A model generated the notes under the pieces. It was not told the origin of the DNA, did not search any database, and was given only the letters and a program-made list of their open reading frames with translations. Of a stretch of DNA of 64,000 nucleotides, positions 11,231 to 14,428 are shown piece after piece; positions within the stretch are counted from its first letter, which is position 1; each line of letters opens with the position of its first letter. Location: the NCBI GenBank assembly GCA_041661185.1, contig JBAZUV010000004.1, forward strand, positions 85,002-149,001. The letters are read 5' to 3'. Source of the DNA: Elusimicrobiota bacterium. GTDB lineage: Bacteria > Elusimicrobiota > Elusimicrobia > UBA1565. Position numbers and translations under genes: made by a program.

Positions 11231-12166
11231 CTATTCTTCCAGCCGGCAGATGTCCTTGGCGGTGATCGTGCCTCGCGCCTCGGTGATCTCGGCTACGGAG
11301 CCTTCGCCCGTGTCGCCTAGAGGTCCCTTGACCTTGACCTTGCCGACCTGGACCTCTTCGTTGCCGAGAGAGAGCCCGGTGGTGGGATCCACGATCTCCT
11401 TGCCCAGATGGACGCAGTGGAGTTCCATGCCCTTCTCCACGCCCATATTCGGCCCGGCGTTCAGGTAGGCGAGATTGCCGTTGACCGCGGCGATGCGGCA
11501 GGACCAGGGCTTCTTGTTGACCTGGCTGACGATGTTCTCGGTGAACTGGGCGATGGCCGCGCGCAGAGCCTTGCCCTCGAGCGTCTCGTCATAGCCGCCG
11601 CGAGTGCCCAGGCCCAGGAAGGAGCCCTTGCCGCTGGCCGCTCGTCCTTTGCCGGAGTCCGCGTAGAGCACCTGCCCGGTCTCCGCGTCCACGATGCGGA
11701 TGTCCACGGTCGCCTCCGCGGTCTGTCGCTTGGACTGGACCACGATGTACTCGCTGCCCTCGGTCTTCACGCCGAACTCGCTGATGGCGCCGGTGACGAT
11801 GGCGTTCAAGCCGAGGATCTTTCCGACCTGCACCACGGTGCGAGAATCGATGGCGCCCGAGGCCTGCAGCTTCTGCTCGTCCATGATCTTGTTGAGCTTG
11901 TCGCGCTCGACGACCACGAACTTCCCGGTCTTGGTCAATTCGGTGATGAGGATGTCCGAGGCCGCGGTGCCCAGGCGCTGTTGGCCGTAGGCCGTCTTAT
12001 TCTCGAAATCCACCACGCCGATGCGGCGCTTGGGGCCGGTGTGTTTGGAGTCCACCTTCTCCGTCACGTTGGCGCTCACGGCCTGCTCGCGCCGGATCGT
12101 CGTCCTCGGAGCGCAGGCTCCCAAAAGCACCGTTGCTGCGACCATCATCATCTGGATGCGTCTCAT
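11231..12166 (-). CDS. CsgG-family outer-membrane lipoprotein (curli-type secretion channel homologue)
   Basis: Lipobox LLGACA; RIGVVDFENKT...GQQRLGTAASDILITEL...KFVVVERDKLNKIMDEQ matches the CsgG/COG1462 signature. Confidence 0.85.
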   Translation of the reverse strand: MRRIQMMMVAATVLLGACAPRTTIRREQAVSANVTEKVDSKHTGPKRRIGVVDFENKTAYGQQRLGTAASDILITELTKTGKFVVVERDKLNKIMDEQKLQASGAIDSRTVVQVGKILGLNAIVTGAISEFGVKTEGSEYIVVQSKRQTAEATVDIRIVDAETGQVLYADSGKGRAASGKGSFLGLGTRGGYDETLEGKALRAAIAQFTENIVSQVNKKPWSCRIAAVNGNLAYLNAGPNMGVEKGMELHCVHLGKEIVDPTTGLSLGNEEVQVGKVKVKGPLGDTGEGSVAEITEARGTITAKDICRLEE

Positions 12167-12167
12167 G

Positions 12168-12797
12168 CTACCTCCTTGGCAGTTCCTTGAGGGCCTGCGC
12201 CGCAGCCTTCTCGGCCTCAGCCTTCAAAAATATCCCCCGCGCCTTGTCCGCGGCCTTGCGCGCGAGGTTCTTCAAAAACGCCTCCGTGGCCTTCTCCGGC
12301 TTCGAGAACTCCCGCGAGGCGCCCGTCCCCACGTCCTCAAAAAGCCTCTCTCCGGAATCCGCATCCACCCACCGCAGCCGCAAAACGACCTTGCGGTTCG
12401 CATACACCCCGATGTTCTGGGACATGAATTCCTCGATCGTCCCATAGACCAGGCCCGGGGTCCCGGTCGCGCGTCCCAGCTCCTGCGGCTTGTAGGCCGG
12501 CAGCTGGCCGCCGTCCGTGACGCCGATCCTCTTGAGCGCGGCGTCCGTCGCCTCCCTCGAGACCACGCGGTAGCCGCGTCCTTCCAACTCGCGGATGACC
12601 GCCTCCCGGCAGATCTTCTCCGCGTCCAAGTCCGTGCTCGCGTTGTCGAACGGGAGCACGGCCGTCGAAGACTGCAGGCGCCCGCTCAGATCCGAAGCCG
12701 CATAGCGAAAGGGCTTCTCCGCGCAGCCCGCCAAGACGAACAAGGCGCAAGCCGCCGACCACGCACGCAGCCAAACAGCCGACCCGCTCCGCTTCAT
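12168..12797 (-). CDS. Lipoprotein, DUF799/GNA1162-like (COG4380-type CsgG partner)
   Basis: Signal peptide plus lipobox LAGCA; VLPFDNASTDLDAEK...GYRVVS resembles DUF799. Assignment is tentative. Confidence 0.5.
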   Translation of the reverse strand: MKRSGSAVWLRAWSAACALFVLAGCAEKPFRYAASDLSGRLQSSTAVLPFDNASTDLDAEKICREAVIRELEGRGYRVVSREATDAALKRIGVTDGGQLPAYKPQELGRATGTPGLVYGTIEEFMSQNIGVYANRKVVLRLRWVDADSGERLFEDVGTGASREFSKPEKATEAFLKNLARKAADKARGIFLKAEAEKAAAQALKELPRR

Positions 12798-12849
12798 CCG
12801 CACCGGAACATCCGCCTCCCGCCCCATGGACGGTCTTCGGCAAAGATAC

Positions 12850-13977
12850 TTACTGCGCGGTCACGGCGACATCGACCTCATAGGCCGAGACCGCGTTGAC
12901 CATGCAGGAATACTTGCGCATGCGCAGGATCTCCGCGGCCAGCTCTTCGCCGGACATCCTGCTCGTGCGCACGGAAAGCTCGGCCCCGCGCTCCCGGTCA
13001 AAAGAGCTGAGCGTCACGTCCACGACCTCGGGCAGCAGCCGCACGTCTTCCTCGAATCTCTGCAGCGCGCCCATGCCCAGTCCGCGCACGCGCAGGACCA
13101 CGTTCGTCCTCGCGGCCAGGATGTCCGCGAGCTCCCCGGCCAAGGACTCTCCCGCAAGCTGGCCCGCGGTATCCAGGGCTTTGGCTTGCGCGATCTGCGG
13201 CGCCGGGTCCAGGGCCGAGGCCTCCATGGTCTTGGCCGCGACCACCTGGCCGGAAGGCCGCAGGACCTCAAGCGTCACCCGCGCGCGATAGGAGAAGAAT
13301 CCTCCCAGCCGCGGGTCCTGCAAAGGATATGCCTGCGCTTCCCCGCGGACGATGAGGTCCGCGCTCAACTCGCGGCCCACGACGAGCGCGCTCACGCTGT
13401 CCGTGCTGCGGCGATTGCCGAAGGCCGCGGGATCGTTGCGGTCGACGACCTCGAAATTCTTAGCCAGGAAGCCGCGGCGCACGCCCTGCGCCGCGCGCCC
13501 GTCGGTAGCCTCGGAATATTCTCCGATCGTGGCAATGAGCACCGCGAGTCGGGGATTGCCCGCGGGACCGGAGCCGCCCGTCAATCCGGCCCTCCGGAGG
13601 TCCTGCCCGATCTTGTCGTAGAGGACCACGGCCTTGATGCGTGTCTTGAAAAGCCCGTTCTCTTCTTTTTCGGAAAGAACGTCGTATTTGCGGATATAAC
13701 CGCCCACCCGAGCGAGGATGTTCTGATCGACATCCACGGCCTGCGCCACGCGCGTCTTGGCGGAGATATAAACGCCGACTACTCGCTCCACGGCTTTGCG
13801 CTGGGCTTCAGCCAAGGCCCTTTGACGAGTGCCCGCGAGGTCCTTGGCGTCGGAGGGGACCCACCCCTCCGCTTCCACGACCTCGCCGGTCTCCGTGCGT
13901 CCGAGCCTGAGCCGGCCGCCGGAACAGGCGCAGATCGTTCCGGCGGCCAGCGTCAGCAGCAGCAGTTTTTTGAGCAA
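12850..13977 (-). CDS. Lipoprotein with LPP20-like N-terminal domain (FlgT-like architecture), 375 aa
   Basis: Lipobox TICACS; N-terminal segment AEAQRKAVERVVGVYISAKTRV... resembles an LPP20/FlgT_N fold. No flagellar genes are nearby. Confidence 0.5.
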   Translation of the reverse strand: MLKKLLLLTLAAGTICACSGGRLRLGRTETGEVVEAEGWVPSDAKDLAGTRQRALAEAQRKAVERVVGVYISAKTRVAQAVDVDQNILARVGGYIRKYDVLSEKEENGLFKTRIKAVVLYDKIGQDLRRAGLTGGSGPAGNPRLAVLIATIGEYSEATDGRAAQGVRRGFLAKNFEVVDRNDPAAFGNRRSTDSVSALVVGRELSADLIVRGEAQAYPLQDPRLGGFFSYRARVTLEVLRPSGQVVAAKTMEASALDPAPQIAQAKALDTAGQLAGESLAGELADILAARTNVVLRVRGLGMGALQRFEEDVRLLPEVVDVTLSSFDRERGAELSVRTSRMSGEELAAEILRMRKYSCMVNAVSAYEVDVAVTAQ

Positions 13978-13981
13978 GACC

Positions 13982-14428
13982 TTACTTGAACTTGACGCCC
14001 ATCATCTGCTCCAGGCGAGCCTTGGGCAGACGCATGGTCACGAGCGCACCGCCGTCCTTGGTGAACTCGGTCTGGATGATCTCCGCGCCCCGGACAGCTT
14101 CATTGACCGTGGCTTGGATCTTGGAATCCGTTTCCATAGCGCGCTGGACGGTGACGCCGCCCTCGATCTGCACGCCCTTGATCAGGGTGAGCAGCTCATA
14201 CTGCGCCTTGACGATGGCCGCGTCCCGGGCCAGCGACTTGCGCTGGGTCTCGGAAGGAAGGCTCGGATCAGAGGCGCCGATGCCGATGACCTCGATGTAG
14301 CTCCCCTTCACCATATCCTGCTTCAGGTCGTCGGCCACGCGTCCGCCCTTGACGTATTTGCTGGAACAGCCGGCCGCCGCGAAAGACATCGCCAACGCCG
14401 CAACGACGAACATTCCCTGCATTCTCAT
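13982..14428 (-). CDS. LPP20-family lipoprotein, 148 aa
   Basis: Lipobox AAGCSS; QRKSLARDAAIVKAQYELLTLIKGVQIEGG matches the LPP20 domain pattern. Confidence 0.6.
   Translation of the reverse strand: MRMQGMFVVAALAMSFAAAGCSSKYVKGGRVADDLKQDMVKGSYIEVIGIGASDPSLPSETQRKSLARDAAIVKAQYELLTLIKGVQIEGGVTVQRAMETDSKIQATVNEAVRGAEIIQTEFTKDGGALVTMRLPKARLEQMMGVKFK

Follow-up and report, generated by a model that had tools for sequence, protein, structure and literature searches.

The described systems closest to the locus reported here are of two kinds. The first is built on outer-membrane lipoproteins of the CsgG/PelC/LptE/GNA1162 fold group, in which the shared core is conserved (PMC13631591). PelC belongs to Pel polysaccharide export, where it forms a 12-mer lipoprotein ring under PelB. 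Non-curli genes of the CsgG family are very common and are annotated "curli secretion channel"; some of them lie in a CsgG/HfaB-DUF4810-DUF799 (GNA1162) cluster, the triad, found in Acinetobacter baumannii (D1G37_12595-12605), Neisseria meningitidis (GNA1162 locus) and Ralstonia (HI796_20120-20130). A. baumannii lost poly-N-acetylglucosamine (PNAG) and Cup pili, and formed less biofilm, when the csgG homologue in a cluster of this kind was deleted (bioRxiv 10.1101/2021.05.19.444899). The second kind is the flagellar H ring or basal disk, which consists of FlgT, FlgP and FlgO in Vibrio and of FlgP/FlgQ in Campylobacter. The H ring contains 26 FlgT and 26 FlgP subunits (PMC13626733), and ring formation in the FlgP family is correlated with a beta-hairpin insert (PMC12222027). 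Here we describe four adjoining lipoprotein genes, g1 to g4, located at 11231-14428 on the minus strand of a 64,000-nucleotide stretch of DNA (the window) from an Elusimicrobiota metagenome-assembled genome (contig JBAZUV010000004.1).

The locus holds a member of a well-conserved CsgG subfamily that has lost the pore constriction and whose fixed partners are homologues of FlgP and FlgT. We propose, with a probability of approximately 45%, that the four lipoproteins form one multi-ring complex in the periplasm, anchored to the outer membrane. The anatomy and conservation of the locus are solid; its function is wholly an inference.

Layout and conservation of the four-gene locus

The minus strand carries four head-to-tail open reading frames (ORFs) in a 3.2-kb unit, in the order g1-g2-g3-g4. 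The features of this unit were as follows:

14434-14439, minus strand: GGAGGG, Shine-Dalgarno-like, 5 nt before the g1 ATG, read from the sequence
13982-14428, minus strand: g1, 148 aa, lipoprotein with a FlgP/LPP20-type SHS2 domain
12850-13977, minus strand: g2, 375 aa, TTG start, three-domain FlgT-like lipoprotein (as modelled)
12168-12827, minus strand: g3, 219 aa, GNA1162-like (DUF799) lipoprotein
11231-12166, minus strand: g4, 311 aa, CsgG/HfaB-family lipoprotein
11177-11212, both strands: bidirectional intrinsic terminator, 16-bp stem with 10 G-C pairs and a minus-strand T run

The ORFs have exactly the limits given in a first-pass annotation of the window, which had proposed four minus-strand lipoprotein genes spaced by 2-23 bp. 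The tight packing was confirmed and the figures were corrected, with gaps read from the sequence of 4 nt (g1-g2), 22 nt (g2-g3) and 1 nt (g3-g4). Because the homologues of g3 begin approximately 10 codons downstream of its annotated start, the ATG at 12797 (MKRSG...) is probably its true start, and the g2-g3 gap would then lengthen to 52 nt. The terminator sits past the g4 stop codon and is common to the convergent glycosyltransferase gene; it is strong and closes the operon.

Each protein has a lipobox after a hydrophobic signal sequence (AAGC in g1, ICAC in g2, LAGC in g3 and LGAC, within LLGAC, in g4), as had been annotated. Because the lipobox cysteine was invariant in the homologue alignments of g1 (C21), g2 (C18) and g3 (C35) and was kept in at least 90% of 27 homologues of g4 (C18), the set was judged not to be a chance pattern.

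Conservation was surveyed with one genome per species in 31 loci that contain a relative of g2, nearly all from Elusimicrobia. The order g1-g2-g3-g4 was intact in 18 of the 31 loci, and a 19th (L027) had the four genes permuted as g3-g4-g1-g2. Four loci (L004, L005, L024 and L026) lacked g3 only, with g2 abutting g4. In another four, g1-g2 stood beside a different protein of the CsgG clan: PDZ-CsgG-like proteins, an opposite-strand CsgG-family protein (L029), or a FlgO-domain protein fused to cytochrome c (L031). The last is a 423-aa protein (L031 1529-2800) that occupies the g4 position beside g1 and a shortened g2 and combines FlgO/CsgG-clan and cytochrome c domains; its Pfam FlgO match (E 4e-10) overlaps its CsgG match, and the FlgP/FlgT/FlgO-like set of this locus is thus complete. 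The best-conserved member of the module was g4, with 55-88% identity across Elusimicrobia.

The g2 alignment of the locus survey reached almost only Elusimicrobia, and a word-indexed homologue search made with a broader, 43-sequence g2 alignment stayed mostly within them. Other phyla were found only through an exhaustive search of representative sequences, followed by cluster and contig look-ups. Outside Elusimicrobia, g2 relatives had as neighbours a CsgG-family gene and either one or two genes for proteins that contain a g1-type domain. As a trio, FlgP-like, FlgT-like and CsgG-family proteins recurred in Halanaerobacter and Halonatronum (Halanaerobiales), in a Zixibacteria-like metagenome-assembled genome and in Armatimonadota; the Halanaerobiales modules also included a gene for a TolB-like beta-propeller. 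Because the trio recurs across phyla while g3 is sometimes missing, the stable core of the module is FlgP-like plus FlgT-like plus CsgG-family, with DUF799 as an accessory. A lack of co-conservation, which the first-pass annotation had named as a refuting outcome, was clearly not what was seen: the genes occur together in approximately 20 species-level genomes of Elusimicrobia and partly in other phyla. That annotation had also taken the 375-aa g2 for an extra component, which did not hold: g2 and g1 accompany this CsgG subfamily across phyla.

Families and folds of the four lipoproteins

The first-pass annotation had called g1 LPP20-like, g2 LPP20/FlgT-like and g3 DUF799-like, and all three assignments stood, although the single-sequence Pfam score of g1 was below threshold. 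In that scan g1 matched LPP20 (PF02169) at E 0.003, with 18.2 bits and a cut-off of 25.9; 10 of 20 members of the g1 family matched LPP20 at E < 0.01 (best 4.5e-5). The profile of 20 g1 homologues matched FlgP of Campylobacter jejuni (9hmf_C, E 2e-10) and of Vibrio (8z5n_2, E 3e-4). The alignment with C. jejuni FlgP was gap-free through the insert that follows the SHS2 helix and precedes the second strand. By profile comparison, g1 is a homologue of FlgP/LPP20 that includes the FlgP-type insert, and this insert may fold as the ring-forming hairpin.

The predicted model of g2 (predicted local distance difference test, pLDDT, 81) had three domains: an LPP20/FlgT_N-like N domain, a middle domain with the PelC/CsgG/TolB_N-type alpha/beta fold, and a ferredoxin-like C domain. 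Its top Foldseek match was Vibrio FlgT (3w1e, E 2e-12) over the full length. The g2 profile matched FlgP (E 1e-6), and the N domain aligned without gaps with C. jejuni FlgP over the beta-hairpin insert. Searches against FlgT_N and DUF4810 had been proposed at first pass as checks. For FlgT_N, g2 scored 13.4 bits (E 0.12), below the cut-off of 28.8 bits, and some of its relatives exceeded it (29.1 and 30.0 bits). For DUF4810, none of the four proteins gave a Pfam match at E ≤ 1. On the strength of the model, g2 is a three-domain FlgT-like protein with FlgT-type N and M domains and the ferredoxin-like C domain; the full set of FlgT_N together with FlgT_M and FlgT_C was present in neither g2 nor g4.

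In the exhaustive representative search, the g2 family comprised 559 representatives at E < 1e-30, rising to 2850 at E < 1e-10. At best, its members touched FlgT_N, LPP20, DUF6175 or the N-terminus of LipL46, and g2 thereby marks out a large group of FlgT-like lipoproteins that has no separate name. Two giant metagenomic fusions, P0157 (1200 aa) and P0146 (1109 aa), held a complete g2-like region. Their further Pfam matches were to FlgT_N, CsgG, transglutaminase-core and TPR; in P0146 only TPR was above the cut-off.

The g3 protein matched Pfam GNA1162-like/DUF799 (PF05643) at E 5e-9, with 36.3 bits and thus over the cut-off of 25.9, and has homologues in the DUF799 genes of both the Ralstonia and the Paraburkholderia cluster. 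Its Cys35 was invariant in 20 sequences. It also gave a weak match to Pfam LptE. Because some related operons are without g3, it is an accessory, dispensable member.

The g4 protein belongs to the CsgG family. It matched Pfam CsgG (PF03783) at E 3e-34, with 118.5 bits (cut-off 20.8), and the match spanned profile positions 7-207 of 210. Its other Pfam matches were FlgT_M (26.5 bits, under the cut-off of 31.2), LpoB (5e-8, above the cut-off) and TolB_N (0.004). A CsgG-type core (aa 44-222) was followed by a FlgT_C/TsaP-like beta domain (aa ~223-311); g4 therefore has M-type and C-type FlgT domains and no N domain. The g4 profile matched CsgG structures at 1e-6, only over aa 65-169, and the C-terminal ~90 residues had a weak sequence match to TsaP (6ve2_O, PilQ-TsaP complex, E 2.5e-4) and to FlgT. 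In Foldseek, the AlphaFold2 (AF2) model of g4 (pLDDT 70) was closest to FlgT in the assembled Vibrio LPHT ring (8z5n_0, E 3e-16, query TM-score [TMq] 0.61), and CsgG followed at E 3e-9 (TMq 0.35).

The regions that line and span the pore of CsgG were altered in g4. Its constriction loop had approximately 9 aa (TAYGQQRLG) vs. approximately 18 in Escherichia coli CsgG, which is 8-9 residues fewer, and was without the Y-x3-N-F motif (E. coli Tyr51/Asn55/Phe56). This deletion was common to every CsgG-family protein beside g1/g2-type genes, whereas the loop was kept in the triad proteins and in E. coli CsgG. The hairpin equivalent to transmembrane hairpin 1 (TM1) had 17 aa vs. 21 in E. coli CsgG, and the TM2 equivalent had ~14 aa vs. 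25. The hairpins were near-invariant in 27 homologues at K134, E136, D/E139, K146 and R147, with charges on both faces; hydrophobic residues occurred only at the tips (Y140-L/I141-I/L142 and F183-L184-G-L186). Two CsgG-family proteins, those of L037 and L029, had no hairpins at all. The L037 protein (3333-4772, 479 aa), which belongs to a distant module, kept the g4-type beta domain and had a further ~200 C-terminal residues ending in ...FSINFGLKF, a tail that looks like an outer-membrane beta-barrel protein signature.

These features bear on the best-surviving alternative to a ring complex, in which the locus would encode a CsgG-type (type VIII-like) secretion channel. In such a channel, g4 would form a nonameric beta-barrel pore, g1-g3 would be periplasmic accessory or gating lipoproteins, and the cargo (protein or polysaccharide) would be encoded elsewhere. 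The first-pass annotation had named g4 a clear CsgG-family channel homologue; the family was confirmed, and the channel became doubtful with the loss of 8-9 loop residues, the short, charged and near-invariant hairpins, the FlgT_C/TsaP-like domain and the FlgT structural match. The CsgG match over the whole Pfam model (118 bits), the extended first hairpin in the AF2 model, the hydrophobic tips retained on the hairpins, the GNA1162/DUF799 partner typical of the widespread CsgG clusters and the deletion phenotype in A. baumannii (PNAG, Cup pili and biofilm; bioRxiv 10.1101/2021.05.19.444899) are all consistent with a channel. However, the shortened constriction loop, the conserved charges on both hairpin faces, a second hairpin ~11 residues shorter than that of E. 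coli, the missing hairpins in the orthologous modules of L037 and L029, and a best structural match to FlgT, which is not a pore, all point away from it, and no CsgA/B/E/F-like gene or candidate cargo was found in the window. We consider a secretion channel unlikely, and it is nevertheless the alternative that we take most seriously. The loop and hairpin features of g4 speak against a gated pore of the curli type, and a barrel that is shallow or wide would be compatible with them.

A putative ring complex and its genomic surroundings

All domains of the four proteins fell into two fold groups: SHS2/LPP20 (FlgP, FlgT_N) and the CsgG/PelC/LptE/GNA1162/TolB_N alpha/beta fold. The structures they matched were mostly ring-forming outer-membrane lipoproteins, including the CsgG 9-mer, PelC 12-mer, FlgT 26-mer, TraT 10-mer and the PqiC-like PA3214 8-mer (PMC13631591; PMC13626733). 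We propose the multi-ring model because the matched structures are mostly ring formers and because the FlgP-family insert is kept in g1 and g2. Also in its favour are the conserved lipoboxes of four closely packed genes, the better structural match of g4 to FlgT than to CsgG, the altered loop and hairpins of g4 and its relatives, the co-conservation of the genes and the FlgO-domain protein of L031. All four lipoproteins would be anchored to the outer membrane on its periplasmic side and would build a ring-shaped, multi-layer complex. The central ring would be an oligomer of g4, with its CsgG-family core and FlgT_C/TsaP-type beta domain. Beside or around it, g1 and g2, each with a FlgP-type insert in the SHS2 domain, would polymerise into rings, like FlgP and FlgT around the flagellar L/P ring, and g3, with its GNA1162/PelC-like fold, would be an optional peripheral adaptor. 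Because g4 has lost the constriction loop of CsgG and its hairpins are short and charged, the complex would probably act as a cage, funnel or scaffold apposed to the membrane, much as PelC or the H ring does; a gated pore of 36 strands like that of curli is unlikely. The observations comprise the order of the genes, their lipoboxes, the assignments to families and folds, the deleted loop and the co-conservation, whereas we infer oligomerisation, mutual contacts, localisation and any role in export or envelope support.

Several results weigh against this model. The insert in the N domain of g2 was modelled as a low-confidence helix, with no hairpin. The Pfam CsgG match of g4 (positions 7-207/210) includes the hairpin regions, and the first hairpin was modelled by AF2 as a long, extended beta hairpin, like that of pore-form CsgG; the g4 model itself was only moderately confident. 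The non-curli CsgG-like proteins of Ralstonia and Paraburkholderia had hairpins as short as those of g4 and kept the long constriction loop, so short hairpins are typical of non-curli CsgG relatives. Finally, a scaffold is the default role, since no cargo or partner machine was found.

A more specific version of the ring model makes the module a free-standing, non-flagellar counterpart of the H ring or basal disk, and possibly its evolutionary source: a multi-ring of FlgP-like, FlgT-like and CsgG/FlgO-clan proteins, present in several phyla and without a pore. We offer this version tentatively and consider it rather improbable as a whole. If it were true, the CsgG-family "channel" annotation would hide a class of periplasmic ring scaffolds. 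If the ring complex exists in its general form, this subfamily is probably misannotated as a "channel", a concrete model becomes available for what CsgG/DUF799 clusters do, and the module is a candidate for a non-flagellar relative that could have been recruited to give the H ring or basal disk.

Upstream of g1, three same-strand genes complete the immediate neighbourhood:

14468-16084, minus strand: DnaA-ATPase-domain protein, 538 aa, Bac_DnaA E 1e-28 at aa 156-310
16081-17337, minus strand: proline-rich repeat protein, between PilT and the DnaA-like gene
17364-18434, minus strand: PilT, Pfam T2SSE 2e-44

In the Pfam scan of the 538-aa protein, the regions to either side of the ATPase domain were unassigned, and no DnaA DNA-binding domain was reported. 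No terminator-like site of comparable strength to that at 11177-11212 was present between PilT and g4, and the three neighbours are possibly co-transcribed with the lipoprotein genes. They lay upstream of g1 in many Elusimicrobia loci and were absent from the distant loci L024-L030 and L036. Because the linkage is clade-specific, we did not count them in the core module, and an obligatory link of PilT or the DnaA-like gene to the module was rejected.

This neighbourhood is the basis of a second alternative, in which the lipoproteins would be a periplasmic ring accessory of a type IV pilus, surrounding or stabilising the secretin as TsaP does and co-expressed with PilT in this lineage. Its attraction lies in the same-strand PilT 3 kb upstream with no comparable terminator before g4, in the gene order PilT/proline-rich/DnaA-like/lipoprotein kept in many Elusimicrobia loci, and in the TsaP match of the g4 C domain. 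That match, however, is weak and confined to one small beta domain. Apart from PilT, no type IV pilus gene (secretin, PilB, PilC, PilMNO, pilins) was found within ~10 kb on either side, the upstream neighbours of PilT being housekeeping genes (TIM, DeoC, 5'-nucleotidase, asparagine synthase and ribosomal proteins L13/S9). In L024-L030, L036 and other phyla, moreover, the PilT link is lost while the lipoprotein module stays. A pilus accessory is thus improbable. The same holds for envelope-maintenance lipoproteins acting singly or in pairs (such as LpoB-like proteins that activate peptidoglycan synthases, or outer-membrane tethers of the LptE/Tol-Pal kind), for which the LpoB and TolB_N matches of g4, the weak LptE match of g3 and the beta-propeller gene of the Halanaerobiales modules could be cited: those three matches were weaker than the CsgG/PelC/FlgT ones, overlapped them and reflect a shared fold rather than a specific family, and the tight, fixed-order co-conservation of four genes suggests a stoichiometric complex.

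Most related loci carried a gene of ~680 aa between the DnaA-like gene and g1 (L003 7448-9496) whose translation resembles a GAF-type sensor histidine kinase. In the window, the gap between the DnaA-like gene and g1 was only 39 nt and the kinase-like gene was missing. A substrate gene at this position was rejected, as the 2-kb gene of the relatives is kinase-like and is missing from the window. In the genes called up to 10 kb to each side, and in the other window ORFs checked, no curli families (CsgA/B/E/F) were present, in agreement with the lack of nearby curli subunit genes reported at first pass.

Other features of the window were recorded. The proline-rich ORF (16081-17337) contained a 45-bp tandem repeat at 16506-17085 on the minus strand (12.9 copies, 94% identity) that encodes proline-rich repeats of the type PKPAPQPAPAxxAPV. 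In two other assemblies of the same organism the contig breaks inside this gene; the C-terminal 130 aa of the protein were conserved beside PilT in other Elusimicrobia. On the plus strand, a sugar-activation and glycosyltransferase cluster (5472-11141) is convergent with the operon. It included a 717-aa protein (695 aa as called) with an Alg6/Alg8-like membrane glycosyltransferase region and a phosphoribulokinase/uridine-kinase domain. A link between this cluster and the module was rejected, because the cluster is convergent, lies behind the terminator and was not conserved beside the module. At 30179-31950 on the minus strand, two adjoining genes of the squalene/phytoene synthase family (SQS_PSY E 1e-76 and 1e-53) hint at the synthesis of lipids of the squalene or hopanoid type. 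At 37502-40141 on the plus strand, an 879-aa ORF had domains of the CarboxypepD_reg and lamin-tail families. For the 661-aa ORF at 40050-42035, Pfam gave no match and the look-up of its product returned no called gene.

Comparison with known systems

The literature searches returned no report that joins CsgG-like proteins with LPP20 or that uses LPP20-family, FlgT-like or FlgP-like wording, and a search for CsgG with DUF799 gave nothing related.

The likeness to PelC was at the fold level only (11-20% identity), and no PelB-like porin/TPR gene or pel genes were adjacent to the locus. LipL46 of Leptospira and g2 are both outer-membrane lipoproteins of ~400 aa, and the N-terminal 150 residues of g2 matched the NCBIfam LipL46 model (E 1e-11). 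However, the score was 43.8 bits vs. an equivalog cut-off of 400, and only the N-terminal domain of g2 matched. The literature on LipL46 gives no structural role.

With curli CsgG of E. coli, g4 has in common that it is a lipoprotein with the same alpha/beta core and two hairpin insertions at homologous positions. The curli protein differs in its full constriction loop and longer hairpins, whereas g4 has charged hairpins and an extra C-terminal domain, and no csgA/B/E/F genes are nearby.

The CsgG-DUF4810-DUF799 triad is similar in having adjoining CsgG-family and DUF799/GNA1162-like lipoproteins without curli genes. In the CsgG-like protein of the Paraburkholderia triad, the C-terminal beta domain and the hairpin lengths were the same as in g4. 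The differences are in the constriction loop, where the triad CsgG proteins, like E. coli CsgG, keep the ~8 residues that g4 and its relatives have lost, and in the partners: DUF4810 is present in the triad (Ralstonia locus), whereas here FlgP-like and FlgT-like lipoproteins precede the CsgG/DUF799 pair. The first-pass view of LPP20 as the usual partner in CsgG modules thus does not apply to the widespread clusters, which pair with DUF4810 (Ralstonia locus).

The flagellar H ring or basal disk resembles the locus in its parts. The g1 protein is a FlgP homologue including the insert, FlgT was the best structural match of both g2 and g4, and a sister locus has a FlgO-domain protein at the g4 position. 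The ring proteins are likewise associated with the outer membrane and mostly lipidated (PMC13626733, PMC12222027). FlgT is nevertheless one protein, and its domains are here spread over g1, g2 and g4; the C domain of g2 is ferredoxin-like rather than a FlgT beta domain, and the core of g4 is by sequence nearer to CsgG than to FlgT_M (118 vs. 26 bits). Flagellar genes were absent from the window ORFs and called genes checked and from the surveyed flanks of related loci.

Because DUF4810, the curli-defining constriction loop and the flagellar context are all missing, the locus belongs neither to the CsgG-DUF4810-DUF799 cluster nor to the flagellar FlgP/FlgT/FlgO ring; the first is its nearest relative by gene content, and the second is its nearest relative by parts.

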